Source: a virus. Taken from it: a stretch of 44,683 nucleotides of DNA. Both the position numbers and the translations under genes were made by a program. The first letter of the stretch is position 1. The number at the start of each line of letters is the position of its first letter. Positions 2,877-38,783 of this stretch are shown here, piece after piece. The stretch lies in UHGV virus genome UHGV-0176991; one strand, given 5' to 3'. The notes under the pieces were generated by a model. The model was not told where the DNA came from and made no database searches. It saw only the letters and a program-made list of their open reading frames with translations.

Positions 2877-2893
2877 TATTTTCGACCCTTAGT

Positions 2894-2917
2894 AAAAAGG
2901 CCCAATAAAGGGCCTTA
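2894..2917 (-). terminator. hairpin plus T-run between SSB gene and polymerase gene (possible attenuator)
   Basis: Minus-strand reading: ggccc-tttatt-gggcc followed by ttttt. Confidence 0.4.
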
Positions 2918-2935
2918 GTTAAATTGATTCAGATA

Positions 2936-3562
2936 TTAGCGGCGGCGACGTTCGCGGCGTGGTGCTTCATCTTCTTCGTCGTCTTCCAGGTCGTCGACGC
3001 TTGCGGCGACTTTAGAACCCCCGAACGCTTTACCTTCACCGACGTATTTAATCGCCAGCAGGTTAACACCGAGAACTTTGTATTTCTGGCTGAACCAGAT
3101 TTCAACGCTTACGTTAGCGACGCAGCCGCTGTAAACCTGTTCACCTTCAATCTGTTCGCCGTCTACGTTGAAGTCTTGCTCTACCTGAGTTTCGCCTTTT
3201 TTAGAGGTTACAATCAGCGGCTGTTTCTGCGCCTTCGCTTTGAAGTAGAAGCCTTCCGGGAAGTCTTCAAACGGATTGTCGCGCTCAGCAATGTCTTTAA
3301 TAGCGCATTTATCCATGTGCTTACCTTCGCCGTAGTTGGACTTCATCCATTTCTCGGCGGCGGCTGAACCTAACGCTTCTTCAACTACAGCGTAAACCGT
3401 ATCGTAGAGCGCGTCGATTTGCGCATGGTCAGACGGCAGGATGATAGTCGCGCTGTACTGGCCCTTAGTGATTGAGCCATCATCGTTTTCACGGTCTTTT
3501 TCGCGTTCGAATACGTTAACCCATGCAGTGTTTACTTTACGCAGATTCAGTTTAATACCCAT
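2936..3562 (-). CDS. single-stranded DNA-binding protein, T7 gp2.5-like, with acidic DDLEDDEEDE segment near C-terminus
   Basis: 208 aa; FYFKAKA...LIVTSKKGE and YSGCVANVSVEIWF...GEGKAFGG architecture resembling gp2.5; acidic tail. Confidence 0.5.
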   Translation of the reverse strand: MGIKLNLRKVNTAWVNVFEREKDRENDDGSITKGQYSATIILPSDHAQIDALYDTVYAVVEEALGSAAAEKWMKSNYGEGKHMDKCAIKDIAERDNPFEDFPEGFYFKAKAQKQPLIVTSKKGETQVEQDFNVDGEQIEGEQVYSGCVANVSVEIWFSQKYKVLGVNLLAIKYVGEGKAFGGSKVAASVDDLEDDEEDEAPRRERRRR

Positions 3563-3616
3563 CTTAATTTCTCGCTTTTCAGTTTACTCCGGGAAGCTGC
3601 CCGGCCAGTGATTAGA

Positions 3617-5912: not shown

Positions 5913-6389
5913 TTATTCTTCTTCGAAATACTTGTTCTTGATTGCTGTCAGGCGTTCCAGATATTCAGCCAGGTCTTCGTCTTTAATCGCAGCAATCTTC
6001 ATCTTCTTACCGGTGAACTCTTCCAGCAGTTCATCTGAATCATCGCACGCGGCGTCACTCGGACCTTCGTTAATCGCATCGTCGATAGCCTGAATCTGGT
6101 CTCGCAGAGACTGGTAATCGACTTCTTCTTCCGGCTCTGGTGTTGGTTCCTCTACTTTAGCTTTACGCGGCTTGCGTTTCGGTGCCTCAATTACCTCTCC
6201 TGATTTATTTGTTGATTGCGCCTTGTTCTGTTCAATTACTATTTTAACAGCGGCTTCTTTCGCCTGTTCAAGGACGTTTTCGACTTCTAACGGCGCTGCA
6301 ACTTGTACTGACTGTTTCGCGATATTCGCGGCAATCAGTTCATGCGCAACTACGAAACGTTCCAGTAATTTTAAGAATTGGTCTAACAT
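5913..6389 (-). CDS. hypothetical protein with strongly acidic C-terminal half
   Basis: 158 aa; EEPTPEPEEEVDY...DDSDELLEEF...KYFEEE. Confidence 0.5.
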   Translation of the reverse strand: MLDQFLKLLERFVVAHELIAANIAKQSVQVAAPLEVENVLEQAKEAAVKIVIEQNKAQSTNKSGEVIEAPKRKPRKAKVEEPTPEPEEEVDYQSLRDQIQAIDDAINEGPSDAACDDSDELLEEFTGKKMKIAAIKDEDLAEYLERLTAIKNKYFEEE

Positions 6390-6413
6390 TATTTGTTCTC
6401 CTGTTTATTTAGG

Positions 6414-6650
6414 TTACTCGCTGTCGCCTTCTGTAAGGCTATCGTCTATTAATTCAAATTTACCGTTTGAATGTTGAATGGCTTCTTGCCCACAATGGTC
6501 GCAAACCACCAGTTTATCGAATCCGTCAAACTCATCCCCGACTACACAAGAAAGTACAAATTTATGTTTTGTACATACTTCTTGCGGTTCGCCGAAAATT
6601 GCCCAGAAACCTTTAGCTATAGCTCCTGTGATTATGTTCATATCTGTCAC
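6414..6650 (-). CDS. small zinc-ribbon protein (CxxH...CDHCG)
   Basis: 78 aa; CTKHKF...VVCDHCGQ. Confidence 0.5.
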   Translation of the reverse strand: MTDMNIITGAIAKGFWAIFGEPQEVCTKHKFVLSCVVGDEFDGFDKLVVCDHCGQEAIQHSNGKFELIDDSLTEGDSE

Positions 6651-6670
6651 CTCTCGTTTGGTATGGGCTA

Positions 6671-6700
6671 ACTATAATAGCTAACTATTCATTATGTCAA
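6671..6700 (-). promoter_or_regulatory. sigma70-type promoter (minus strand) TTGACA-18-TATAGT
   Basis: Reverse complement TTGACAtaatgaatagttagctatTATAGT; shares 22 nt with the promoter at 3617..3645. Confidence 0.5.
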
Positions 6701-6764
6701 TGGGCTTTTCTAAAATAATTAATATGGTACTATTCACATATCAACTGACTAAGGAGTAATTGAC

Positions 6765-6980
6765 ATGCAACCATCTGAACTAGGCATCCGTGTAGAACAA
6801 CGCCGCAAAGAACTCGGCATCTCCCAGCGCCGTCTGGCAGTCCTGGCCGGCATTTCCCAGGGTGCGATTAACCAGCTGGCACTCGGGGTAACTCAGGACG
6901 TCCGCCCGGCGACGCTGTTCAAGCTGGCGGAAGTGCTGCAAGTAGACGCCAAGTGGCTGGCGTTAGGTGAAGGGGCTTAA
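6765..6980 (+). CDS. HTH XRE-family (Cro/CI-type) transcriptional regulator
   Basis: 71 aa; LGISQRRLAVLAGISQGAINQLALG helix-turn-helix; strong SD aaggag; opposite strand to neighbours. Confidence 0.7.
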   Translation: MQPSELGIRVEQRRKELGISQRRLAVLAGISQGAINQLALGVTQDVRPATLFKLAEVLQVDAKWLALGEGA

Positions 6981-9864: not shown

Positions 9865-10079
9865 TTTACGTTCTCCTTAATCCACGCTTCCACTTTCTCC
9901 CGGTCAAACGTACCAGGCTGACGGCGGCCCATAATGCGGATACAACAATCCGGGAACTTCCCACTCTTTAACCAGTTGTTCAGCGTGCGGCGAGTAACCC
10001 CGATACGCTCAGCTACCTCATTCTGCGTCATCTTTAATCTCCTTAATTGTTTCCCGCGCGAACGCTGTAGCTGTGCCAT
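9861..10079 (-). CDS. small HTH DNA-binding protein
   Basis: MTQNEVAERIGVTRRTLNNWLKSGKF helix-turn-helix; true start may be the internal ATG at 10031. Confidence 0.5.
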   Translation of the reverse strand: MAQLQRSRGKQLRRLKMTQNEVAERIGVTRRTLNNWLKSGKFPDCCIRIMGRRQPGTFDREKVEAWIKENVK

Positions 10080-10203
10080 ATTTATTGGGGCAGTATCTGC
10101 TCTCGTTATGTCCGTTAAACCACGCTTCTATAAGCAACTCTTTCAACTGCTCTTCTGTCAAAGTAACCATTCTCAAACCCTCATTATCAGTTAACGAAAC
10201 CAA
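10018..10203 (-). CDS. hypothetical small protein (start more likely at internal ATG 10170)
   Basis: ORF track only; first gene downstream of the predicted minus-strand promoter. Confidence 0.3.
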   Translation of the reverse strand: MVSLTDNEGLRMVTLTEEQLKELLIEAWFNGHNESRYCPNKYGTATAFARETIKEIKDDAE

Positions 10204-10231
10204 GTATACATTGCGAATAATGGGAAATCAA
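10203..10231 (-). promoter_or_regulatory. sigma70-type promoter (minus strand) TTGATT-17-TATACT
   Basis: Reverse complement TTGATTtcccattattcgcaatgTATACT at the head of the minus-strand early block. Confidence 0.4.
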
Positions 10232-10601
10232 ACATAATCGCACCTATTGACATTATGAAAATCTTCGTTTAAGGTGCTTCTATATCTTAGTTACTTTGAT
10301 TCCTGTTCACCTTGTAAGAATGTTTAACCCGTGCGTCAAGCAAAGGGTTAAACACAGGCTTACTGAACATGAGAATTATCGTAACTTTACTTCCTAAGTA
10401 TCTCCGGTTGCCTTGGGCAAGCTCTATTCTCATCGGCAGCATATCTCTTAAGTATCTGATTTTCTTAATATGCCGTAGATTCGCAACCGTAAAAATGTAA
10501 CGATTATTGGGCAGGCTTAAGGCCTGCCCTTTAGTTACCAAGTAAAAAGAATAAAGGCACAACAGTTTCTAAAGAATCACAACGGCATCGTAACTATTTA
10601 C

Positions 10602-26992: not shown

Positions 26993-27405
26993 TGGGCTAC
27001 TTTGAGGACTTAACAAAAGCGTTCGATGTGCCGCTGGTAGCCTTCGGAACCGCCAACGGCATCAGGGTTGCGCTTGAAAACATCGACGCGCCGACGTCAA
27101 CCGATACACCATATCTGGCAAGTTACATGTTGCTGGCGGATACCGAGCAGGCTGATTTGTTCTTCACGGAACAACGCGCCGGTGTTTATCAGGTCGACAT
27201 TAACTACGCATCGGTGAAAGGTAGCGCGCCAATCAATAAAATGGCAGACTTACTTAACACGGCGTTTAAAGCAGGTAAGTCATTTTCTCGTAACGACATC
27301 TGCGCCGAGGTTCAATCGGTTAGCCTGGGGCCGCTGATTGTAGAAAACGGATGGGCCAAACGACCATTGTCAATTAACTTTATTGCATTCACCAAGAGGC
27401 TGTGA
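26989..27405 (+). CDS. tail terminator-like protein
   Basis: Position immediately upstream of major tail gene. Confidence 0.4.
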   Translation: MMGYFEDLTKAFDVPLVAFGTANGIRVALENIDAPTSTDTPYLASYMLLADTEQADLFFTEQRAGVYQVDINYASVKGSAPINKMADLLNTAFKAGKSFSRNDICAEVQSVSLGPLIVENGWAKRPLSINFIAFTKRL

Positions 27406-28577
27406 ATATGGCTACAACTCCTTTTAAGGGCGCGAATACCGCGCAATTCTATGTGGCAGAAGTGACCCCGGGTGTAACACCAAGTAGCCCGGTATGGTCG
27501 CCGTTGCGCAACACAGGTGGCGTTCCTGCGGTAACCCGTGATGCGCTGACCTCCAACGAACTTGACGGCAGCCGTGAAACTACGTCCATCCGCACCGGTA
27601 ACAAGCAGGTTAGCGGGGAGTACGCCATCGAACTTAGCTCCCGTAGCCAGGATGATTTCCTTGCTGGCGCTATGACTTCTACGTGGCAGGATGGCGTGAC
27701 GTTATCCGCTGTTGGTATTACAGTGGACCCGGTAGCGAAAACCTTCACCCGAGCCGCAGGAAGCTTCATTACTGACGGTGTAGAGGTTGGGGACCTTCTG
27801 TATTTTGACGCTTTAACTGGCGACAACTCTAAGCCGTTCATCGTTACCGCCGTAACAGCTACGGTTGTTACGGGCGCAGGTATCCAACACACCCTGACCG
27901 CTGAGGGCCCTATTGAGACCGACGGTAAAACCGGCGACAAGCTGGAAACCGGCAACGCATGTAAGACGTTCTCCATCCTGACGTGGTTCAAAGGCCAGTG
28001 CGGTAACCCTGACGCATACATGCTCACCAAAGGCGTGGAAATCTCTGGCTTCACCGTGGAGCAGGCGGTTAACGCTATGGTCACCGGCAGCTTCCCGTTC
28101 ATTGGCCTGAGTCAGGAGATTCTTACCGCACCACCGACAGGTTCCGACTTCTCTCAGGTCACCTTCGCCGACGAGCCGTTCTCATCTGTAGATGTGTCTG
28201 TGTTCGACGGTTCTACGCCGTTGCGTTGTGATACTCTCACTATCACCAACGATAACGGTGCTTCCGCGCAGTTCGAACTCGGCAACAGTAGCGTGGCGTT
28301 CGTGGAACGTGGCCGCGCAACTAACACCTTCTCCATCTCAGGTAAGCTGTACGACATGGCAATGATTCAGAAGTTTATCAACGAGCAGCAGGTAGAGATT
28401 AACTCTATTCTGGCGGGGGTAAATGGGGCTATGTCTTTCAGCCTAAAACGCGCAGAGCTTACGGCGGTTACACCAGAGATTGGGGGGCCTGAGTCAATCA
28501 CTCAGAGCATAGAAGGACAGTCCACAGGCAATCAATATCAATCTTCAATTGTAATACAGCGTATTAGCTACGCGTAA
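27402..28577 (+). CDS. major tail protein
   Basis: 391 aa, last structural gene before chaperone/tape-measure unit; followed by terminator. Confidence 0.55.
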   Translation: MNMATTPFKGANTAQFYVAEVTPGVTPSSPVWSPLRNTGGVPAVTRDALTSNELDGSRETTSIRTGNKQVSGEYAIELSSRSQDDFLAGAMTSTWQDGVTLSAVGITVDPVAKTFTRAAGSFITDGVEVGDLLYFDALTGDNSKPFIVTAVTATVVTGAGIQHTLTAEGPIETDGKTGDKLETGNACKTFSILTWFKGQCGNPDAYMLTKGVEISGFTVEQAVNAMVTGSFPFIGLSQEILTAPPTGSDFSQVTFADEPFSSVDVSVFDGSTPLRCDTLTITNDNGASAQFELGNSSVAFVERGRATNTFSISGKLYDMAMIQKFINEQQVEINSILAGVNGAMSFSLKRAELTAVTPEIGGPESITQSIEGQSTGNQYQSSIVIQRISYA

Positions 28578-28580
28578 GGA

Positions 28581-28603
28581 AAAGGCCCCGAAAGGGGCCT
28601 TAC
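28581..28603. terminator. GC hairpin terminator aaggcccc-gaaa-ggggcctt
   Basis: Perfect hairpin; reverse complement of the hairpin at 29111. Confidence 0.55.
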
Positions 28604-29097
28604 TATTTACCGTGGTTCTTGTGAAACCCTAAATCTCTTTCAGCAACTCTCCTCGCGGCAACTGCATCTAGTAGCGTTTTAAAGCATCCGATGTGTGTTT
28701 TTACGTTATTGTTGAATATCTGCGCATACCACAACCTTTCTTTCGCGTTCCAGTAAACCCCGGTTACTCCTGATTTATTATTACGCTGTTTTGACATATT
28801 TTTATGGTTTTCCGCATTGGACTTTTTAGCTAAGTTAAGCGGTCTATTGTTTATTCGGTTATGGTCTAGATGGTCTATTTGATCTGACGAGGTTAGCTTA
28901 TCGTTAGGATTGTTTAAGTCCCATGCTATACGGTGTGCCGCGTGCCATTTGCCTCTGAAAAATATCCTTCTATATCCGTCTCGCTGTATAGTACCTGCCT
29001 CCTCTCCAGCCTTAGCCCTCCCGGACCGTGTTACTCTGTTAAATATCCTTCCTGAAATTAAGTCGTATATGAAAAATTCATTCCAATCCATAATCAT
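28603..29097 (-). CDS. HNH homing endonuclease with AP2 DNA-binding domain
   Basis: IDHLDHNRINNRPLNL (HNH) and SGVTGVYWNAKERLWYAQIFNNNVKTHIGCFKTLLDAVAARRVAE (AP2); AT-rich relative to flanks. Confidence 0.75.
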   Translation of the reverse strand: MIMDWNEFFIYDLISGRIFNRVTRSGRAKAGEEAGTIQRDGYRRIFFRGKWHAAHRIAWDLNNPNDKLTSSDQIDHLDHNRINNRPLNLAKKSNAENHKNMSKQRNNKSGVTGVYWNAKERLWYAQIFNNNVKTHIGCFKTLLDAVAARRVAERDLGFHKNHGK

Positions 29098-29110
29098 CTC
29101 CTATTGTCAT

Positions 29111-29137
29111 AAGGCCCCTTTCGGGGCCTTTTTCTTA
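29111..29137 (+). terminator. GC hairpin aaggcccc-tttc-ggggcctt + T-run
   Basis: Identical 22-mer also at 40997. Confidence 0.5.
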
Positions 29138-29311
29138 CTCACTTTTGAATGGCATTTCATAGAAGTTAGTTAACTGGCCCCGGTTACTCCGTTCTGTCAT
29201 TTCTTTAGAGGCCTCTTCCTTACTACCGACGGCATAAATATCGACCCACTCGTCCCATTCTTCGTCGTATACTCGGATTACATATATTGTTTTCATAATA
29301 TTTTCACTCAT
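29135..29311 (-). CDS. hypothetical small protein
   Basis: Internal ATG of ORF 29135..29353. Confidence 0.35.
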   Translation of the reverse strand: MSENIMKTIYVIRVYDEEWDEWVDIYAVGSKEEASKEMTERSNRGQLTNFYEMPFKSE

Positions 29312-29534
29312 CGATATTGCTTCGGTACTCCCGTAACTTCTCCAGGCTTTCAATTGCTTCTGCTAAGTCGGTTCCCGTGTCCTTGTGGCCGCGCAAGCCC
29401 ATACACAACAGCTTCTTCAATGCGTGCTGTAGCGCCGGGTCGCGGATGTCGAAGGCACGCAGCACATCATAAACGTCTACTGTCATAGTGCTGCCGTGGG
29501 TGTTTGTCATTGTGCGGTTATATTTTGAAGTCAT
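29304..29534 (-). CDS. DUF3310-like phage protein
   Basis: TVDVYDVLRAFDIRDPALQHALKKLLCMGLRGHKD...DLAEAIESLEKL pattern recalled for that family. Confidence 0.4.
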   Translation of the reverse strand: MTSKYNRTMTNTHGSTMTVDVYDVLRAFDIRDPALQHALKKLLCMGLRGHKDTGTDLAEAIESLEKLREYRSNIDE

Positions 29535-30661
29535 CCCAGCATCTCCGGTGAAATAGTTAAACGTGCGACCTCACCGTATTCGGCGCTATAAGTAATTACA
29601 TTCGCACTGCGCCCTGACATCCACCCGCCGCGCGAGGCGTAGGCGTCTTTAGCCGCCAGGGTGCGGTGTTGCTCAACAATCATGTTACGACTTTCTACAA
29701 TCTTCTGATGGTGCAGGTGGCCTACGTGGGCGTAGCTGTAAACGCTCTCGCCGAACGCTTTACGGAACTTGGCAATCATAACCGGTTCGATAGCGTCGAA
29801 GCGCACTTTATGCCCGTGATGGAAGAACAGCGTCGTTTTGCCGTGTTGCACCATTTTGTAAACATCCGGCGACGTGTCGACGAACACCCGCGGCTCGTTG
29901 TCGTACAGCGTACTGAACATCTCAGCCAACCAAATCATTCCGCTTTCGTCGTGGTTCCCTTGCACGATAAGCAAGCGGACATTTTTATGTTTAACCAGCG
30001 CCATATCAATAACACGGCGCACCATACGAATCATGTAACGGACCAGTTTCTGATAGCGCGTGTCCGCATCAAGAACATGACCGCTTGCTGGCGTAACGGC
30101 GTCCAGACTATCGAAGTGCGCAAGGTCACCAAGCAGGTTAATAACCCCTGTTCCTGCATCCGGCGCTTTCTGAAACGCCGCATCGAACCATCGAGAGAAC
30201 AGGTCTTCTGCAATCTTCATGTCCCAGTCGTCGCCGCTCTCGTCGGCCCAGGCCAGCATACCGAGATGGAAATCAGATACCGTGTAAAGATTGAGTAGCT
30301 TATCGTCGCGTTTGGCTCGAGTCGCTTTAACAGGGGTAACTGGTGTAATCTCCGACTTCATGCCCTCGATTACGGCCTTCATTAACTCTACCTGACGTTC
30401 GGCATCGGTGTCGGTCTTAACCCATTGCAATTTAGTGTTGCCGAACTCGTCCACTAGTGACGACGTTCCTTTAATCTTGTAGCCGTCCGGTACAAGGTGA
30501 CTAACGTCACGCCCGTGGCCTACACCTTTCTTAGCCAGCTTCGCTTTACGGATACGAATAACGCGGTCGGAGATGCCATATTTACGAGCGATGTCTACAT
30601 TCTTCATCCCGGCGTTCAATTCTTCCTGTAATTGTTCGTCGGTTATTTTCTTCTGGGCCAT
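29531..30661 (-). CDS. HTH-fused calcineurin-like metallophosphoesterase (SbcD/Mre11-like motifs)
   Basis: N-terminal HTH (NVDIARKYGISDRVIRIRK); SDFHLG, GDLAHFD, GNHDE, HHGH, GHLHH metallophosphatase motifs. Confidence 0.7.
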   Translation of the reverse strand: MAQKKITDEQLQEELNAGMKNVDIARKYGISDRVIRIRKAKLAKKGVGHGRDVSHLVPDGYKIKGTSSLVDEFGNTKLQWVKTDTDAERQVELMKAVIEGMKSEITPVTPVKATRAKRDDKLLNLYTVSDFHLGMLAWADESGDDWDMKIAEDLFSRWFDAAFQKAPDAGTGVINLLGDLAHFDSLDAVTPASGHVLDADTRYQKLVRYMIRMVRRVIDMALVKHKNVRLLIVQGNHDESGMIWLAEMFSTLYDNEPRVFVDTSPDVYKMVQHGKTTLFFHHGHKVRFDAIEPVMIAKFRKAFGESVYSYAHVGHLHHQKIVESRNMIVEQHRTLAAKDAYASRGGWMSGRSANVITYSAEYGEVARLTISPEMLG

Positions 30662-30699
30662 GCTTACTTCCTCGTGTTTAGGATTTGTCCTATACTAGC

Positions 30700-30891
30700 T
30701 CACTTCTCTTTGACATTCGAGTTGCACGCCCAGATTAAAATAAAGACCCACGGCAGTAGAACCCAGCCAAGAAACAGATTAGCCATGAATATCGCTAATT
30801 TCGCTTTATGACCACGCATATGGGCCACTAAAAACGGGATAAAATAAACTAAAACGATAATGATTAAGAAGAACATAGTAATACCTGTCAT
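30700..30891 (-). CDS. small two-TM membrane protein, superinfection-immunity (Imm)-like
   Basis: VYFIPFLVAHMRGHKAKLAIFMANLFLGWVLLPWVFILIWA pattern. Confidence 0.5.
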   Translation of the reverse strand: MTGITMFFLIIIVLVYFIPFLVAHMRGHKAKLAIFMANLFLGWVLLPWVFILIWACNSNVKEK

Positions 30892-30961: not shown

Positions 30962-31068
30962 GTAATGTGTTAGAATTATTTTGCGCCTAGTGTCGCACAC
31001 GAAAAGCGGGTGGTTCCCGCCTGGCGCATTCACCTTAACCAGTAACCTCTTAACCAAAGGATTAAAGA

Positions 31069-31485
31069 ATGAAACTTTCCGATTTTTATTACGAAGCTGA
31101 GGCGGAAAAAGGCGCCCGTATGCCGATCCCACTGAAAGACGGCACCGATTCAGGGGAGTGGCTGAACGTTGTTTCACCTGAGGCAGACGTTGCAGTTAAA
31201 GCTATGAGGGCGTTTACACTTGCGTACCGCGCGGCATTAGGTAAATTGAAACCGCTTCGTGATAAATGCGAGGAACTGAAAGATTTCTCGGAATACAATA
31301 TTAAGATGGAAGACGCTGCGACGGACCTTAACCGCCAGTTAGCACTTGAACTGGTTAACGGTTGGAGTCTCGACGATGAATTTAATAAAGAGAACCTGAA
31401 TACTCTTTTCTCACAATATAAACGCCTCGCTGAACACGTTGTCGTTTTCCACAATGAACAGCTACGCCAATTGCAGGAAAAGTAG
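31069..31485 (+). CDS. tail assembly chaperone (gpG-like)
   Basis: Position between major tail and tape-measure genes; followed by -1 frame extension ORF. Confidence 0.55.
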   Translation: MKLSDFYYEAEAEKGARMPIPLKDGTDSGEWLNVVSPEADVAVKAMRAFTLAYRAALGKLKPLRDKCEELKDFSEYNIKMEDAATDLNRQLALELVNGWSLDDEFNKENLNTLFSQYKRLAEHVVVFHNEQLRQLQEK

Positions 31486-31490
31486 ACGCG

Positions 31491-31850
31491 TTGCTCCAGT
31501 TTGCCCGTTGGAACTTCATAACCCGCCACAAACGGCGGGAGTTTGACAGTATCGCAGATGGGCATAAAGCCGCGCTAATTGCTATGGGGGTTATGCAAGA
31601 TGCGCCGGAAGCAACGCAGGACACAGGGCCGGAATGCCCCCCTGAGCTATTAACCACCTTCGAGAAGTACAGGGAAATCAAATTCACCCGCCGAGTGGAC
31701 GATGATGGCATCAAGATGTACCCGCGCGAACAGTTAAGATGGTCGGATTTAGTGGCATACAGCGCCGTTTCAGGCCAGAATATAGGCATGTTTGAATCTG
31801 ACATCATCATGAGCTTAGACGCTATTTTCGAGGGTAGAAACGATGGCTGA
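31491..31850 (+). CDS. tail assembly chaperone frameshift extension (gpT-like; made as G-T fusion)
   Basis: Open in -1 frame from 31458 relative to G; no own ATG/SD; ends at tape-measure start. Confidence 0.45.
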   Translation: MLQFARWNFITRHKRREFDSIADGHKAALIAMGVMQDAPEATQDTGPECPPELLTTFEKYREIKFTRRVDDDGIKMYPREQLRWSDLVAYSAVSGQNIGMFESDIIMSLDAIFEGRNDG

Positions 31851-34179
31851 TGTAGCTAGTTTAGTTGTAAAGGTATCAGAGCAAGGCGCGAAAGCTACAT
31901 CGGACCGTCTTGATAATCTCTCCAAGTCGGCAAAAGTAGCGGGGGCAGCCGTAGCCGGCCTCGCTTCCATCGTCGCCGCTACCGCGTACAAGGCCGCACA
32001 GGAACTAGTAGACTCCCAACGGCAACTGGACAAGATGTCCGCCAGCCTGAAAACGCTAACCGGAAGCACGCAGGGTGCAAGACAGGCGTTAAGCATCCTG
32101 CAAGACTTCGCGCGCGACACTCCGTATGGCCTTGAACAGGCGGTAGAGGGATTCCGTAAACTGGTGGCTCTCGGCCTTACCCCCTCAGAAGAAGCGTTGC
32201 GCTCCTATGGCAACACTGCCGCTGCTATGGGTAAAGACCTTAATCAGATGATTGAGGCCGTTGCGGACGCCAGTACATTTGAATTTGAGCGCCTTAAAGA
32301 ATTTGGTATCAAGGCCAAGCAGAACAAAAACGATGTTGAATTTACATTCCAGGGCACTACTACGGTGGTTAAGAAGAGCGCCGCCGATATCGAGCAATAC
32401 CTGCTCAACATTGGTAACGTAAACTTCGCGGGGGCTATGGCGGACCAGGCCAACACACTTAACGGGGCCATAGCCAGTGCCAGCGACTCATGGTCACAGT
32501 TAAAAATGACACTGGCTACCAGCCTTGATGTTGGTGCTCTTGCGGAACCCATCCGGTACATCGATGATTTAATCCAGGAACTTAACGCACAGGTGGCATC
32601 CGGCGAACTCGCCGCTGAGATGCGTATGTGGGGTGGCATCGCATCAGAAGTGGGCAGCGCGATAGAGATGTCGTTCGACGCGGCATTTGGTTTCGTAGGC
32701 GACGCGATAAACGGGCTGAATGAACTTTGGGATTTTAGCAGCAAAAGTATCACTGACAGCGGAGAACAAACGGCGACCACTATAGCCGAATCCGCGGCGG
32801 ATGCTCTCGATTTCATCGCAGAAGAATTTACAGCGATGGAACGTTTCTTTGAGGACATGGTTAAAGGTGCACAGGACGCTGGCCGGTTGGTGAAAGCTGC
32901 CTTCACACCAGGGGAATCTGTAGACGTAGCAAAAAACATTAACTTCCAGCTAGGGATGGCACTGGATACTCAGCGTGATGTTGCAGACCTGACCCGTAAA
33001 AGTTTCCGCGAACAGGTGGAGGCTCAGCAAAATATTGTCGCGCTTAAACGCGCGGCATATGACATCGACAAAGAAGCTGCTAAGGAAGAAGGGCTTAGTA
33101 AATTTAAGGTAACGGGTACCGGTGGCGGGTCCGAAGATGATAACGCTAGTGCAAAAGCCGCCAAGAAAGCTGCGGATGCGTTCGAGCGCCAGAAGAAAGC
33201 CGCGGAGGATTTCTACTACCAGTCGATTCATCTCAATGATGACGTATTCCAGAAAATAGAAGCCAACCAGGAACAGCAGCTAACCAAGCTACAGGAGTTC
33301 TACGGCAATAGGCTTCTTAGCGACCAACAATACGAGAACGCCAAAACTCAGATTATGCTGGAGGCGGATACCGCACGGCAGCAAGAATTGGATAAGCGCG
33401 AGAAAGAACGGCAGGAAAAGCAGCAGAAAGGCGACGACTTCATGGCTCAGATTATGGGCCAGAACGCTACTGAGCTTGAGCTTCTCGACATTCAGGAACA
33501 GCAGAAGCTGGCGGTAGCTGATAAGTACCGAGAACAGGGACTGATTAACGAGGAACAGTATCAGGCGGCGCTTAACGCTATCAATGAGGGATATGCCACG
33601 AAACGTGCGGATGCTTTAGGTAGCTCTTTCGGTGACATGGCGGCTAATGCTAAAACAGCATTTGGCGAGGCGTCCACCGCGTATAAAGCGTTTGCTATTG
33701 CACAGGCAACTATCGCCACGTACACATCGGCTATTGAGGCATATAAGTCCACGGCGGCTATACCGGTTGTCGGCCCGTTCCTTGCACCTGTTGCCGCAGC
33801 TACTGCCGTTGCCGCAGGGCTGGCTAATATAGCCAAAATCCGCTCGGCGCGTGAACAGGGCGGTCAGTTATCAGCGGGCCAGATGTCAACTATAGCGGAA
33901 CGTGGTAAACCGGAAGTTATCATGCCCGCGGGTGCATCGCGTGTGCGCACCGCGCAGCAGATGAAAGAAATCATGGGGCAAAACGGCGGCCAGTCCGGCG
34001 GGGATAACGTCACCATCGTCAACAACACCACTGGGCGTGTGGATTCTGCCGTGACGGAACGTGATGACGAAGGGCGTTTACGTATTATAATCAGTGAAAC
34101 AGTAGCGTCGCAGTTACAGGATAACAACTCACCGATTTCTAAAGCTCGCCGCTCTACTCGCGGTCAGCCGGGGTATTAA
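31843..34179 (+). CDS. tail tape measure protein
   Basis: 778 aa, Ala/Gln-rich coiled-coil. Confidence 0.8.
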   Translation: MADVASLVVKVSEQGAKATSDRLDNLSKSAKVAGAAVAGLASIVAATAYKAAQELVDSQRQLDKMSASLKTLTGSTQGARQALSILQDFARDTPYGLEQAVEGFRKLVALGLTPSEEALRSYGNTAAAMGKDLNQMIEAVADASTFEFERLKEFGIKAKQNKNDVEFTFQGTTTVVKKSAADIEQYLLNIGNVNFAGAMADQANTLNGAIASASDSWSQLKMTLATSLDVGALAEPIRYIDDLIQELNAQVASGELAAEMRMWGGIASEVGSAIEMSFDAAFGFVGDAINGLNELWDFSSKSITDSGEQTATTIAESAADALDFIAEEFTAMERFFEDMVKGAQDAGRLVKAAFTPGESVDVAKNINFQLGMALDTQRDVADLTRKSFREQVEAQQNIVALKRAAYDIDKEAAKEEGLSKFKVTGTGGGSEDDNASAKAAKKAADAFERQKKAAEDFYYQSIHLNDDVFQKIEANQEQQLTKLQEFYGNRLLSDQQYENAKTQIMLEADTARQQELDKREKERQEKQQKGDDFMAQIMGQNATELELLDIQEQQKLAVADKYREQGLINEEQYQAALNAINEGYATKRADALGSSFGDMAANAKTAFGEASTAYKAFAIAQATIATYTSAIEAYKSTAAIPVVGPFLAPVAAATAVAAGLANIAKIRSAREQGGQLSAGQMSTIAERGKPEVIMPAGASRVRTAQQMKEIMGQNGGQSGGDNVTIVNNTTGRVDSAVTERDDEGRLRIIISETVASQLQDNNSPISKARRSTRGQPGY

Positions 34180-34180
34180 A

Positions 34181-34207
34181 GGTAGGGGCTAACGCCCCTC
34201 TTTTATC
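34181..34207 (+). terminator. intrinsic terminator aggggc-taac-gcccct + T-run
   Basis: Hairpin nearly identical to the 6971 terminator. Confidence 0.6.
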
Positions 34208-34839
34208 AAGGCGATAACGCGGGCGAACATACCTTCCCTTATCGCCTCTATCTCGCATCTTCTTGATTCTGCTATCCTTATCTTTTCAGCGATGTAGGCG
34301 TCTAGCGCTTCTTCCTGAGTTTCAAAACGTCCTAGATTAATAGTTTTTTTCTCATATTTCACTGAGGCTTTAAATTTACCTCTTGATTCTTCATAAAAAA
34401 CACCTGTAGGTGACTCACTATTTTTCCTTTCCAGTAGAAAAACATTCAACCATTGCGGGATAAAAATGCAAGTGGTGGGGCTGTATATCTTATTAATACC
34501 AGAGAATAAGTCCTTATCTAGTTCCCATCCTTCTACGTAATTACAAAGCCACCATCTACGGAAGGACATAAACCTTTGCCACCCATGCCACACAGTTACA
34601 TCCTTGTATGCAGGTCTTTTGTTTTTATACTCGACGTCTATGCAACGTTGGATCATCCCTCGCCACGTAGCGTACGCAGGACACGGCTCACGGTTGCCGT
34701 TTATCTTAGGACTAACCACATAATCGGCATCATTTATGCCAAAATCGCATATAGTTGCACGCCTAGTTTTGCTGCTTTTGTTCGCGGGATAATTCGCGCG
34801 CAGCCACATACTCTTAGCTACTTTTTCTGTGGGTATCAT
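34189..34839 (-). CDS. homing-endonuclease-like protein with C-terminal AP2 domain
   Basis: TGVFYEESRGKFKASVKYEKKTINLGRFETQEEALDAYIAEKI (AP2); AT-rich; reverse-oriented insert between tape-measure and minor tail genes. Confidence 0.55.
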   Translation of the reverse strand: MIPTEKVAKSMWLRANYPANKSSKTRRATICDFGINDADYVVSPKINGNREPCPAYATWRGMIQRCIDVEYKNKRPAYKDVTVWHGWQRFMSFRRWWLCNYVEGWELDKDLFSGINKIYSPTTCIFIPQWLNVFLLERKNSESPTGVFYEESRGKFKASVKYEKKTINLGRFETQEEALDAYIAEKIRIAESRRCEIEAIREGMFARVIALIKEGR

Positions 34840-34874
34840 GTTAGTATCTCCTAAAATAATAGGAGTATCTTACT

Positions 34875-35369
34875 ATGTCTTCTTTAAGATTTCCAACAAG
34901 TTTAAAGCCTATAGTGTCGAAGGGGTACTCCCAGACCAGGGGGAGTAATATCTGGCGCACCGAGGTTCAGGGCGGCCTACCTCGGCAGGGGCGAGACACG
35001 TACTTCGAACCGGTGCCGATTAGTGTGACGCTCGTCGTGTCTTCTCTCGGGCGTCAGGCGTTCTATAGCTTCCTGAACAACATCGACGGCGGGGCGTCCT
35101 CGTTTATCATGCCGCATGATACAGGTATGGGCATTGAGGACCACCAGGTACTCATCACCTCTACGATTAGCGACAGCACCGACGACGGAAAGAACTGGGT
35201 AATCACGTTCACCGCTACGGCGGAGCGAACAGCGATTCAGGAAGGCACATGCCTTACTAAGAATCTGCCCGATTTGTTCGGCTGTTATGGTGATTGCTTA
35301 GGCGGATTCCTTAAAGCATACGGAACCGCGCAATCAACGTTTCCACGTATTTGGGACCCAATGCAATGA
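34875..35369 (+). CDS. minor tail protein
   Basis: Position after tape measure; aggag SD. Confidence 0.5.
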   Translation: MSSLRFPTSLKPIVSKGYSQTRGSNIWRTEVQGGLPRQGRDTYFEPVPISVTLVVSSLGRQAFYSFLNNIDGGASSFIMPHDTGMGIEDHQVLITSTISDSTDDGKNWVITFTATAERTAIQEGTCLTKNLPDLFGCYGDCLGGFLKAYGTAQSTFPRIWDPMQ

Positions 35370-35881
35370 GTCAGGAATCAGTAGAAGCCGCCTATCGCCG
35401 TAAGCTGGCATCAAACCCAGATGGCGAACTGGATTACATTACTCTTGAAATAACGCACCCGCTTCTCTCGAAGCGGTGGTTGCTTGTGCGCGGTACTTCT
35501 GACCTTACCGCTACTCTTGAAACCGGGGAAACTGTTACGTTCGAGGCCACGCCTATGGACGCCAAGAACGCCGCGAACAATAATGACATGGACCAGACAG
35601 CGTCATTCTCGCTACCGGATGTCCTTAACATTCTCGATGAAGAGATGGGCCGCATCCCCTACAGCAACACAGAGTTGCCTAAATTCATATTCCGCCGCTA
35701 CGTAAGCACGGACCTGTCGTACCCGTGCGACGGCCCGGTGGTGTACGAATTGCAGACGTTGACGCAAGAAAAAGGCGTGTTCACCGCCGAGACCGGAACG
35801 CCTATGCTCAACCAACGGCAGACAGGAATACTGATGACACCGGAAGAAATACCGCTGTTGCGTGGGGTACTCTTGTCATGA
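35366..35881 (+). CDS. minor tail protein
   Basis: ATG overlapping upstream stop. Confidence 0.45.
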   Translation: MSQESVEAAYRRKLASNPDGELDYITLEITHPLLSKRWLLVRGTSDLTATLETGETVTFEATPMDAKNAANNNDMDQTASFSLPDVLNILDEEMGRIPYSNTELPKFIFRRYVSTDLSYPCDGPVVYELQTLTQEKGVFTAETGTPMLNQRQTGILMTPEEIPLLRGVLLS

Positions 35882-36243
35882 GTATCACCGATTATACGGG
35901 CACCCCTTATGACTTCCGTCGTTACAATTGTTGGCATCACGTGCGCAGGGTGCGCGGTGATGTTGGCCTATCTACGCCCGCTTTCGACGTAACATCACCA
36001 ACTGCGATACCCGCGGCGTTTGACGCGGGGCACTCCGACCCGAAAGGTCTGGAACGCGCTACCAGTCCGAAGAATTACGATGCTGTGTTGCTCGGTACTT
36101 ATCACAGGGGGCGTGTAGTGTGGCATGCAGGCGTGTATTATGATGGGATGGTAAGCCACTGCGAGTTAGCGTCCCGACAAGTTCGTCTCGACCGTCTGGA
36201 CGATTTACGGGACACATATCAGGAGATTGAATTTTGGCGATAG
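35878..36243 (+). CDS. tail assembly protein with NlpC/P60-like Cys-His motif
   Basis: YNCWHHV...HAGVYY; ATGA overlap. Confidence 0.4.
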   Translation: MSITDYTGTPYDFRRYNCWHHVRRVRGDVGLSTPAFDVTSPTAIPAAFDAGHSDPKGLERATSPKNYDAVLLGTYHRGRVVWHAGVYYDGMVSHCELASRQVRLDRLDDLRDTYQEIEFWR

Positions 36244-38783
36244 TTATCCACTACACCCGCAACGAAGACGGGACATTCACACAAAAACGGCATAACGACT
36301 CGCCGCTGAATTTCGTCGTAAACCATATCCCTGATGGCGTGCCGTTTCGCGTTTTCCTCGAAGAAATAGGCGAAGATAATGACGTAACAGAGGATTTTGA
36401 CGCCTTAAAACAGGATGCGGTTTTCCACATCCTGGAAGGTGCTGGTGGCGGCGCTATAAAGGGTGTGATGAAAGTGTTCAGCATAATCCTTAAACCGCTG
36501 GCTAAATTACTCACACCGTCAACAAAGGGCGCGTCTAACAATCTCGCTAACCAGCAAGCGGACTCGCCGAATAACAGTCTGACAGACCGAAATAACAAGG
36601 CCCGCCCGTACGAGCGAACTTATGACATCTGCGGTAGGGTGCAGACGATACCTAATAACCTTATGACCACTTATAAGGTTTTCGATAATGCAGGCCGTAT
36701 CATCGAGTATGGCTACTATGATGCCGGGCGCGGGTATCTTGACGTTAAAGCAGAAGACATCACCGACGGTGACACCAAAGTCCAGGAGATAACCGGAACC
36801 TCTGTCGCTGTGTATGCCCCGTACACATCGCCCAACAACACAAGCTCTCCGCAACTTCTTGTTGGGGAGGCTATCGGCCAAAAGTTGTATATAACCATCG
36901 CATCTAATGAAGTAGATGGTGCGGTACTGAAAGCTCAAAACGGCATAAGAGTAAACCCAAGCGACACCGGAGAGATATCGCTGCAAGGGACAACGGGTAT
37001 TGTACGTGATGCAACCGGGGATTCCGCGTTTACAGAAATTCTGTCAGTTGGCGATGTGGCCGTTTTCAATCTCATTCTGGTAAAAGATGTTGCTAACGTA
37101 AGCGGTAATTATACGGTCACTTACGTCGATGATTTCGAGGTTAGAGTCGCTGTAGGCGGTATGCTCACCGAATGGCAGAAGTTGCCGTCTGGTTTTACCC
37201 GGCTGACACAGGGCAATGAGGCGTGGATTTCACCATCAAACACATATGATAAATCATTAACCGACTGGACAACGCTTAACCGTCTGCCGGTAGAACGTAT
37301 CGTTGCTAATATCGCCGCCGCTAACGGCATGTATAAAGACAACGGCAGTAAACTAAGGGCGTCTGTTACAGTCGAGTTGCAGTACCAGTTACTAGATACC
37401 ACCGGAACACCTTACGGGCCTATATACAGTAAACAAGGCACTATCTCTGGGCGCTCCTCGGATTACACCGGCGTGACAATCTACGCTGACCTGCCATCGA
37501 CGTCTAATGTTCGCGTACGGGCGCGCAGGGTAACAAACCTGGACCTTGCTTTCGAAGGTACGGTAGTGGACGAGGTTTCGTACATAAACCTGTACGGGCA
37601 AATACGCGACACCACACCTAACTACGGCAACAGAACCACCGTGCATTCCGCACGTAAACAGACGCCCAGGGCCGCAGAGGTTAAACAGCCACAATTGCGA
37701 ATGGTAGTAACTGAGATGGTGTACAAGTACCTCGGTAACGGTGTTTTTGACTCCGTAAGAACGCCAAACACACAGGCTGTACAGTCGCTGATTCGTCTTG
37801 CCCGTGACCCGGATGTAGGCGCGTTGAATCTGACAACGGCAAATATGGATAAACTGTTGACGGTACAAAGCGAAATTGAAAGCTATTTCGGAAGCACATC
37901 CGCGGGGGAGTTTTGTTACACGTTTGATGACTATAAAACTACGATGCAGGACATAGTAACTACGATAGCGGAGGCAATTTTCTGTACCCCATATCGGAGA
38001 GGTGCGGATATTCTTCTGGACTTTGAACGCCCTCGGATTGGCCCTGAGATGGTATTCACCCATCGCAGCAAAACTACCGCTACGGAGAAGTGGACGCGCA
38101 CGTTTAACGATGCCCAGGTATACGATAGCCTTAAGTTTTCATACATCGACCCGGATACTAACGTCAAAGAGACAATCAGCATCCCGGCCGAGGGTGGGGT
38201 TAATACTGAAACGTACGACTCTAAAGGTATCCGTAATTATCGTCAGGCATACTGGGCTGCATATCGCCGCTATCAGAAAAACCTGTTGAAGAAGGTAACA
38301 GTATCATTCACGGCGACAGAAGAAGGGATTTTTGCGATGCCCGGACGTGTGGTAAGTGTGGTAAAAGGTTCGCGTATGGCCCCACAAGACGGCTATGTAA
38401 TCGCCGTTAATGGGCTTACGCTTACTCTTTCTCAGTCAGTTACATTTACCCCCGGTGACGACCACTCACTGATTCTCAAAAAGCGTGACGGTGGTGTTCA
38501 GAGTGTTGCCGTTGTTCCTGGAAGCCACGACCGTGAAGTGGTTATGCTCTCCGCGCCTCAGGAGGCAATCTACACAGGGAATAGTGCGCTAAAAACTGAG
38601 TTTTCATTCGGCAACGAAGCAAGGCATAATGCTCAGATGATTCTTGTTTCTACAGTTGACCCAGGAGACGACAGAACAGTTAAGATTACCGGGATTAACT
38701 ACGAAGCGGATTTCTACAAATACGACGGCGTCGCACCTTTCGGTCGCGGTTTCTCCGACGGATTAAGCAATGGTTTTAGTTAA
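36234..38783 (+). CDS. tail tip / central tail fibre protein (gpJ-like)
   Basis: 849 aa; TTG start per ORF track with AGGAG upstream. Confidence 0.5.
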   Translation: MAIVIHYTRNEDGTFTQKRHNDSPLNFVVNHIPDGVPFRVFLEEIGEDNDVTEDFDALKQDAVFHILEGAGGGAIKGVMKVFSIILKPLAKLLTPSTKGASNNLANQQADSPNNSLTDRNNKARPYERTYDICGRVQTIPNNLMTTYKVFDNAGRIIEYGYYDAGRGYLDVKAEDITDGDTKVQEITGTSVAVYAPYTSPNNTSSPQLLVGEAIGQKLYITIASNEVDGAVLKAQNGIRVNPSDTGEISLQGTTGIVRDATGDSAFTEILSVGDVAVFNLILVKDVANVSGNYTVTYVDDFEVRVAVGGMLTEWQKLPSGFTRLTQGNEAWISPSNTYDKSLTDWTTLNRLPVERIVANIAAANGMYKDNGSKLRASVTVELQYQLLDTTGTPYGPIYSKQGTISGRSSDYTGVTIYADLPSTSNVRVRARRVTNLDLAFEGTVVDEVSYINLYGQIRDTTPNYGNRTTVHSARKQTPRAAEVKQPQLRMVVTEMVYKYLGNGVFDSVRTPNTQAVQSLIRLARDPDVGALNLTTANMDKLLTVQSEIESYFGSTSAGEFCYTFDDYKTTMQDIVTTIAEAIFCTPYRRGADILLDFERPRIGPEMVFTHRSKTTATEKWTRTFNDAQVYDSLKFSYIDPDTNVKETISIPAEGGVNTETYDSKGIRNYRQAYWAAYRRYQKNLLKKVTVSFTATEEGIFAMPGRVVSVVKGSRMAPQDGYVIAVNGLTLTLSQSVTFTPGDDHSLILKKRDGGVQSVAVVPGSHDREVVMLSAPQEAIYTGNSALKTEFSFGNEARHNAQMILVSTVDPGDDRTVKITGINYEADFYKYDGVAPFGRGFSDGLSNGFS

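Follow-up and report, generated by a model that had tools for sequence, protein, structure and literature searches.

A probable homing endonuclease gene of the IPA-HNH family in an antisense cassette between tail genes of a Kagunavirus-type phage

RESULTS

An antisense cassette lies between the tape-measure and first minor tail genes

The 44,683-nucleotide (nt) stretch of viral DNA UHGV-0176991, hereafter the window, belongs to a Kagunavirus-type (Guernseyvirinae) siphophage of Escherichia coli. Within its tail operon we identified a minus-strand open reading frame (ORF) of 216 amino acids (aa) at 34189..34839 that is probably a free-standing homing endonuclease gene (HEG) of the IPA-HNH type, acquired horizontally as part of an antisense cassette and spread by homing during mixed infections. 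A PHROG profile and the homologues of the product point to this gene type. The whole inserted cassette measures 731 bp (34180..34910) and consists of a left linker with a hairpin, the HEG, a 35-nt spacer and a recoded version of the first 36 nt of the neighbouring minor tail gene. It starts right behind the stop codon of the tape-measure gene (31843..34179, plus strand) and ends within the first minor tail gene (34875..35369, plus strand; 164 aa), and the HEG is antisense to both.

A megablast search with positions 31000..37000 matched 438 related phage records, among which Escherichia phages BUCT823 and vB_EcoS_HSE2 (HSE2) were the nearest backbone relatives (92.5% identity over two segments that together span 87% of the query). 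The 34189 ORF is missing from both and from 64 of the 66 related Guernseyvirinae loci in IMG/VR. HEG-less phages start the minor tail gene 0-3 nt past the tape-measure stop codon, a junction shared by 64 of the 66 loci; in HSE2 the ATG follows after 3 nt (empty junction …GGGGTACTAATTAATGAGCGATTTGAGATTCCCTATGTCC…), compared with 695 nt between the two genes in the window. The insertion destroys the coupling of the tail gene to the tape-measure gene.

Boundaries were mapped by a four-way alignment and a 40-nt identity profile of the window, HSE2, the HEG-less locus L011 (partial-block allele TAAACTATGTCTTCTTTAAGATTCCC…) and the HEG-carrying phage XY1. Up to the tape-measure stop codon (34179), identity of the window is 85-100% to HSE2 and L011 and 50-60% to XY1; from 34186 to approximately 34910 the window has no counterpart in HSE2 or L011 and is about 91% identical to XY1; from 34911 onward it is again 90-100% HSE2/L011-like and only about 62% XY1-like. 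Relative to HSE2, the start of the tail gene carries 19 differences in its first 39 nt, mostly synonymous (Ser TCT/AGC, Ser AGT/TCC, Leu TTA/CTT), followed by 0-1 difference in the next 51 nt. An earlier note on this DNA had proposed alignment with relatives lacking the ORF as a check, and this alignment defines the insertion to the base. The combination of HSE2/L011-like flanks with an XY1-like interior indicates that an HSE2/L011-type backbone received an XY1-type cassette.

All homologues above 55% protein identity (55-94%) occupy this same junction in antisense orientation. The carriers comprise four isolates (XY1, VIPECOTH07, SHAK7693 and fEg-Eco19) and seven distinct metagenome loci, and the distance from the HEG start codon to the tail-gene ATG is 35-37 nt in every one of them. 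Junction and cassette boundaries are identical across at least three different backbones. The SHAK7693 record (OR594180.1, vB_EcoM_SHAK7693) bears an Autographiviridae/Kayfunavirus taxonomy line together with a Kagunavirus tail region and the HEG, and is probably mislabelled.

Two further loci carry other HEGs at tail-gene junctions. In L062 (IMGVR_UViG_3300044556_000033), a 310-aa HEG with CapR and T5orf172/MUG113 domains (1530-2459, minus strand of the locus) sits antisense at the same junction. In L075 (633-1259; also in L076), a second IPA-HNH paralogue (profile E 3e-53) lies antisense between a DUF1833 minor tail gene and the tail gene that follows it, on a contig that also carries the focal HEG. 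Given this unrelated HEG and the second paralogue, tail-gene junctions are recurrent landing sites, and the junction of tape-measure and minor tail genes is a hot spot for unrelated HEG families.

The inserted ORF is a conserved gene of unusual composition

The earlier note had read three ORFs, at 700..1443, 28603..29097 and 34189..34839, as homing-endonuclease-type genes; all three are present there, on the minus strand. It had also claimed a compositional contrast. Against a window mean of 50.8% G+C, a windowed scan placed both the 34189 ORF (42.7%, 2.7th percentile of same-size windows) and the 28603 ORF (41.0%, 1.3rd percentile) well below the backbone, but the contrast did not extend to 700..1443 (48.5%, 27th percentile). 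Sporadic presence, composition and matches to nuclease-family or AP2 profiles support the interpretation of these loci as selfish elements; the ORFs are not shared by all relatives without contrast, nor are nuclease and AP2 matches lacking.

The 34189..34839 product matched phrog_953 ('HNH endonuclease') at E 6e-65 and had 262 homologues in a set of 5.8 billion proteins. Orthologous copies were intact in all 17 examined (214-217 aa), and the pairwise ratio of nonsynonymous to synonymous substitution rates (dN/dS) was 0.06-0.19 where dS was measurable. The AlphaFold2 model of the protein reached a predicted local distance difference test score (pLDDT) of 93. The ORF is a real gene under purifying selection.

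The product combines a divergent nuclease-like domain with an AP2 domain

The N-terminal domain (residues 1-140; 34420..34839, minus strand) is divergent, nuclease-like and devoid of the characteristic histidine. The earlier note had called it uncharacterised, a fair description at the level of Pfam and NCBIfam: no Pfam HNH family matched the focal protein or any of 47 homologues at E ≤ 1, and neither Pfam as a whole nor NCBIfam gave a match for the N-terminal 140 residues of the same proteins. Invariant positions include GINDADY (34-40), W59, R65, L-D-K-D (107-110), K117, Y119, C124 and N132. Used alone in tblastn, the domain retrieved 1376 phage records, including Rheinheimera Barba phages and two places in phage ICP1, GP59 (E 9e-9) and GP209 (E 4e-7).

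GP59 and GP209 are among the founding IPA-HNH homing endonucleases of Barth et al. 2023 (NAR Genom Bioinform, PMC10448857), a class described there as having an HNH-like domain too divergent for Pfam HNH_3, followed by AP2, with genes near essential genes and at genetic-exchange boundaries. Alignment of the focal protein with GP59, GP209 and two Guernseyvirinae paralogues showed retention of W59, M62, R65, C66, Y78, W96 and D108-K109-D110, together with K117, Y119, P121, C124, P128 and N132. By these shared residues and the tblastn matches, the focal protein belongs to the IPA-HNH family. At E ≤ 1e-3, and with clustering at 50% identity, the family counts 8269 cluster representatives; the motif [LIVM]-D-K-D-[LIVMF] occurs in 262 of 265 members fetched, and none of the 265 has a histidine at the D-K-D position. 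That 262 of 265 members conserve D-K-D...N speaks for a functional active site.

DSSP assignments on the structural models delineate a putative beta-beta-alpha core at residues 105-135 (34435..34527, minus strand), with strand WELD, strand IFIP and helix QWLNVFL. The last element includes N132, at the position of the metal-ligand asparagine of the HNH helix; it is invariant, and its counterpart in the HNH_3 family is the conserved N97. Profile-profile comparison with the HNH_3+AP2 family of the 28603 ORF placed C124..N132 onto N88..N97 and continued through AP2 (probability 96.7%, E 3e-10), and a comparison of the N-terminal domain only with the HNH_3 family was not significant. These features suggest that the domain is a divergent relative of beta-beta-alpha-metal nucleases, with lysine in place of the general-base histidine, cysteine in place of the structural asparagine and the asparagine ligand retained, which would place the protein in the His-Me finger superfamily. 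From family membership and the population pattern we infer that it has nuclease activity and cleaves DNA.

The C-terminal region (residues 145-192; 34264..34407, minus strand) folds into three strands and a helix. The single focal sequence scored 22.9 bits against the Pfam AP2 family, under the threshold; 25 of the 47 homologues matched, and the profile of the focal family retrieved the plant AP2 structures WRI1 and ERF1 (E 3.4e-7). The identification as an AP2 DNA-binding domain (PF00847) is secure despite the sub-threshold score. AP2 domains are reported to prefer G+C-rich sites (Barth et al., PMC10448857). None of the 47 homologues contained a CapR zinc-finger domain, and their alignment lacked a cysteine cluster.

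Gene and flanks have discordant histories in one lineage pair

Only seven phage records carry the focal gene at 80% identity or more. Between the window and XY1, the HEG is 91% identical while the flanks reach only 48-65%, and this discrepancy shows a recent horizontal transfer. Discordance between gene and flank histories is clear for this lineage pair only. Two operational hallmarks of a free-standing HEG were found, namely sporadic presence at one precise site and a discordant history with conversion of adjacent sequence.

A nucleotide-conserved block of the tail gene is linked to the HEG

The right end of the cassette is a recoded start of the minor tail gene (MSSLRFPTSLKP; 34875..34910, plus strand). 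Across nine distinct HEG-carrying loci, mean pairwise nucleotide identity was 58% for the last 150 nt of the tape-measure gene, 69% for the HEG, 73% for the spacer, 90.8% (minimum 83%) for the first 36 nt of the tail gene and 69% for its next 150 nt. Similarly divergent HEG-less loci averaged 60% identity over these 36 nt, and only 1.2% of their pairs reached 83%; no HEG-less locus came within 10 mismatches of the HEG-carrier consensus ATGTCTTCTTTGAGATTTCCAGCAAGTTTAAAGCC. A degenerate pattern of the block had no match in 2.9 million IMG/VR contigs and four matches in metagenomes, each preceded by the HEG at a distance of 35 nt. Between most lineages the HEG has reached saturation at its synonymous sites (proportion of synonymous differences, pS, 0.67-0.84), so youth alone does not explain the block, which is constrained at the DNA or RNA level. 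RNA structure was rejected as the cause, fold energies of the initiation region being like those of shuffled sequences (z -1.5 to +0.9). No further copy of the block, as expected of a shared operator or promoter motif, was present elsewhere in the genome within 3 mismatches.

The spacer (34840..34874) contains a pair of divergently oriented Shine-Dalgarno sequences: GGAGA (complement of 34847..34851) serves the HEG and AGGAG (34861..34865) the tail gene, which thereby obtains a new initiation region from the cassette. A -10-like hexamer of the HEG, TAAGAT (complement of 34867..34872), is also found in the spacer, located 17-18 nt downstream of a minus-strand -35-like element, TTGGAA/TGGAAA, inside the block (complement of 34890..34896). 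At the hexamer position, three lineages have TATAAT and the XY1 group has CAAGAT; TAAGAT also recurs among the other lineages.

At the left end, a scan located a terminator-like G+C-rich hairpin (AGGGGC-TAAC-GCCCCT; 34184..34199, plus strand), followed by CTTTTAT on the plus strand and including the HEG stop codon (34189..34191). It is kept with compensatory changes in seven HEG lineages (free energy, dG, -14 to -18 kcal/mol); in the XY1 group it is degraded and another hairpin lies upstream instead. The T-tract, on the plus strand and just past the tape-measure stop codon, is odd for an HEG terminator. By its appearance, the hairpin could terminate or attenuate the late transcript midway through the tail operon.

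Four HEG-less loci (L005, L009, L010 and L011; 2498..2520) read 'TAA ACT ATGTCTTCTTTAAGATT' and continue with HSE2-type sequence; this string combines the 3 nt preceding the ATG with the leftmost 17 nt of the block. Such loci could represent footprints of HEG loss, tracts of partial conversion or resistant alleles. An origin by microhomology-mediated deletion of the HEG was rejected, with no convincing repeat at the inspected junction sequences. A breakpoint at the junction in L005 and L009 was likewise discarded; the tape-measure lineage switch lies about 200 nt upstream of the stop codon instead.

A canonical HNH_3+AP2 gene occupies a second variable slot

The ORF at 28603..29097 (minus strand, 164 aa) is a selfish nuclease gene of the canonical HNH_3+AP2 type, located in a variable slot by a terminator. 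Its product passed the Pfam HNH_3 threshold (PF13392; 26.4 bits against a gathering threshold of 24.8) and matched PHROG 99 (E 2e-49). The family alignment gives a D75-H76...N88...N97 signature, in which D75, H76 and N88 are invariant and N97 is present in at least 90% of sequences, and has an AP2-like C-terminus. The HNH-AP2 assignment in the earlier note is therefore borne out, the family having both HNH_3 and AP2. The claim that these genes oppose their neighbours holds for 34189..34839 but is only half true here, since the ORF is the last member of a minus-strand module of five genes and the four on its right run in the same direction; at this locus, orientation alone is weak evidence for selfish insertion.

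Distribution across phages is narrow. Only five phage records, all Kagunaviruses, carry the gene at 95% identity or more, and all others are below 60%. The slot lies between the tail-tube terminator and a conserved minus-strand module. Phage Ivi has a small ORF and no HEG in it, and KMB36 and Ro145c2YLVW have this HNH_3 gene. In fPoEco01 (L082:1483-2115), fFiEco02/03, ORH_001, Hrm2 and Ec1-ASingh, the slot holds a plus-strand IPA-HNH paralogue 36-37% identical to the focal protein. Two copies of a plus-strand terminator hairpin bracket the window ORF, the left one at 28582..28601 (AAGGCCCC-GAAA-GGGGCCTT) and the right one at 29111..29130 (AAGGCCCC-TTTC-GGGGCCTT, followed by a T-run); Ivi has one copy.

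An out-of-frame gene lies within a polymerase intein

The third locus lies in a family A DNA polymerase gene on the minus strand, which starts at 2876 and runs off the window (2876..<1). This gene contains a 299-aa intein (639..1535, minus strand) with the C...HN|C signature, that is, cysteine as first residue, His-Asn at the end and a following cysteine; the intein is missing from ZCEC5 (inteinless allele RQIGKA|CELGLGYEGG) and others. Wholly inside it lies the 247-aa ORF 700..1443 (minus strand). The nesting proposed in the earlier note stands, but the ORF uses a frame different from that of the intein, and its 'HNH' label depends on PHROG: the product had no Pfam family match, HNH included, and among profiles matched only phrog_374 ('HNH endonuclease', E 1.7e-47). 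Many phages carry free-standing genes that match it as well.

Neither frame is interrupted in any of four phages, the window phage, two Jerseyviruses and one Dhillonvirus. Across 703..1290, most substitutions hit third codon positions of the HNH frame (67 of 110 in the comparison with the Dhillonvirus Pubbukkers); the exteins and the intein's N-terminal part have theirs at third positions of the polymerase frame. This pattern supports selection on the alternative frame in mid-intein and on the polymerase frame at the intein N-terminus and in the exteins. The intein differs from the Jerseyvirus copies by 2.7-5.7% and the adjacent exteins by 11-20%, indicating recent spread; it occurs in Kagunavirus, Jerseyvirus and a Dhillonvirus. 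An annotated Jerseyvirus record lists the intein and no internal gene. The 700..1443 ORF is a selfish out-of-frame HNH-like gene in a polymerase intein. Out-of-frame endonucleases in inteins have been described only recently and called a rarity (bioRxiv 10.64898/2026.09.14.751524; related PMC11855218). The cyanobacterial dnaX intein (bioRxiv 10.64898/2026.09.14.751524) and the ShiLan element (PMC11855218) likewise hold an alternative-frame endonuclease in an open insertion; unlike these, the element that houses the gene here is a bona fide intein, and it sits in the family A DNA polymerase of a phage.

In phage KMB36 (OR525703.1), the polymerase region matching window positions 1..3600 is about 460 nt longer and overlaps an annotated 'HNH homing endonuclease'. 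This polymerase-adjacent insertion is another variable HEG site.

Surrounding genes and further low-G+C regions

The tail-tube gene (27402..28577, plus strand) is met by a conserved, converging five-gene module on the minus strand (28603..30891), whose members include a metallophosphoesterase/'DNA repair exonuclease' and a superinfection-immunity gene. The latter (30700..30891, minus strand; Pfam Imm_superinfect E 9e-14; 38.5% G+C) opens the module and is moron-like. The tail assembly chaperones lie between this module and the tape-measure gene, and the distal tail genes run on the plus strand from 34875 onward. The lowest-G+C stretches of the window, 6201..6800 and 10001..10600 (39-39.5%), contain small ORFs only and gave no AP2 or IPA-HNH profile match.

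DISCUSSION

Proposed route of spread

Under the reading we consider probable, that of a free-standing IPA-HNH HEG homing in mixed infections, the protein would bind the HEG-less allele of a coinfecting phage through its AP2 domain and cut or nick at or near the junction. A candidate recognition site is the conserved 3′ end of the tape-measure gene, CGCGG.CA.CC.GG. Repair of the break from the HEG-carrying genome would copy the cassette in. The carrier would be immune by virtue of the insertion splitting the recognition and cleavage sites, of the rewriting of the first 36 nt, or of both. The cassette would bring a ribosome-binding site for each of the two genes, which would make up for the translational coupling lost between tape-measure and tail genes, and probably also a promoter or operator of the HEG, antisense within the 36-nt block.

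A more specific proposal, which we regard as rather unlikely to hold in full, treats the cassette as a fixed unit whose block serves as promoter or operator, as immunity determinant and as tail-gene initiation region. The D-K-D...N domain would then be a distinct lysine-based nuclease or nickase, or else no nuclease, in which case spread would not proceed by classical double-strand-break homing.

Several observations weigh against homing by an active nuclease. Where HNH enzymes end the first strand with their catalytic histidine, 262 of 265 members of the focal family have lysine. We know of no IPA-HNH member with demonstrated DNA cleavage. The consulted passages of the family paper (PMC10448857) contain no biochemical cleavage evidence for the family. 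In most pairs other than window/XY1, HEG divergence is similar to flank divergence, implying long periods of vertical inheritance as well and a history that looks mostly vertical, and long persistence under strong purifying selection exceeds what purely selfish homing predicts. A promoter scan found no minus-strand promoter upstream of the HEG at the 9/12 threshold; by eye, only an 8/12 site was seen (TTGGAA-N18-TAAGAT, or TGGAAA-N17), rising to 10/12 in the TATAAT lineages. A sub-threshold sigma-70 promoter for the HEG is plausible from these matches.

Alternative explanations

We consider improbable an alternative in which the product is a domesticated or nuclease-dead DNA-binding protein that attaches to the 36-nt block or some other site and regulates tail genes or a host or competitor target, its mobility a relic, in the manner of AP2-containing CasPR anti-CRISPR repressors or of I-TevI autorepression. 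The missing catalytic histidine, the strong purifying selection with long residence at one site, and a nucleotide-constrained block just ahead of the gene, at the place expected for an operator, all speak for such a regulator, and HEG-derived AP2 proteins acting as repressors have precedent (bioRxiv 10.64898/2026.02.23.707548). Yet the gene is missing from 64 of 66 relatives and therefore dispensable, its transfer was recent and its boundaries are sharp, and an unrelated HEG family uses the same junction. The invariance of D-K-D...N across thousands of cluster representatives is, moreover, typical of an active site. A CasPR-like anti-CRISPR function in particular was rejected, as the CapR zinc-finger domain of CasPRs is missing from all 47 homologues examined.

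Less probable still is an ordinary accessory gene ('moron') brought in by illegitimate or homologous recombination between phages, with no nuclease driving its homing and a product whose role has nothing to do with its spread. Low G+C content and antisense orientation are shared with the superinfection-immunity gene at 30700..30891, and Guernseyvirinae are generally mosaic; against this stand the identical junction and cassette boundaries in at least three backbones, a HEG-type domain architecture and the location of the family at exchange boundaries beside essential genes. That the ORF is a chance reading frame or a decaying pseudogene is hardly credible: small size and odd composition are all that speak for it, set against intact copies in 17 loci, a dN/dS of 0.06-0.19, a confident fold and 8269 cluster representatives.

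Comparison with known systems

The ICP1 proteins gp59, gp115/116 and gp209 (PMC10448857) have the same two domains, the L-D-K-D, K..Y.P..C and N signatures, and locations beside essential genes. The focal gene differs from them in residing in a Guernseyvirinae siphovirus, at the junction of tape-measure and minor tail genes and antisense to the operon. Its cassette also includes part of the neighbouring gene, with fixed limits and a conserved nucleotide sequence, a feature that the consulted passages of PMC10448857 do not mention for IPA-HNH genes. The nuclease core of canonical HNH_3+AP2 homing endonucleases is I-HmuI-like (Magnani et al. 2004, cited in PMC10448857). They share with the focal protein an N-terminal nuclease and a C-terminal AP2 domain, and the alignment between them spans the second beta strand, the helix and AP2. 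In contrast to them, the 34189 protein has lysine for the catalytic histidine and cysteine for the middle asparagine, and its N-terminal ~100 residues are unrelated at the profile level. PacI (PDB 3m7k), a dimeric restriction enzyme with zinc-binding cysteine clusters, was a marginal match at 14% identity.

Free-standing HEGs of T-even phages (SegG, SegE, MobE and the I-TevIII type) are intergenic genes beside essential genes, are sporadically distributed, co-convert their flanks and are likely agents of marker exclusion. Intergenic position by essential genes, sporadic occurrence and flank co-conversion are all shared with the focal HEG, for which marker exclusion is likely too. The T-even genes belong to other nuclease families (GIY-YIG, or HNH with histidine) and have variable co-conversion tracts, whereas the right boundary of the focal cassette is fixed at +36 in all lineages. 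I-TevI, an intron-encoded GIY-YIG homing endonuclease, also binds an operator over its own promoter. By analogy, autorepression of this kind could account for the 36-nt block, which overlaps the presumed HEG promoter.

Implications

The focal gene joins the known IPA-HNH class and extends this family to the Guernseyvirinae. A fixed cassette boundary combined with a HEG-linked, nucleotide-constrained rewrite of the first 12 codons of a neighbour was not found in the passages of the literature consulted. The locus offers a base-resolved example of how a HEG cassette is packaged inside a tightly coupled essential operon, bringing ribosome-binding sites for both genes and a rewritten set of the neighbour's first 12 codons. 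For phage-therapy genomics, in which Kagunaviruses are candidate agents, three DNA-exchange loci are flagged. The family hallmark documented here, a near-universal D-K-D rather than D-H, makes both the activity and the chemistry of the IPA-HNH family testable.

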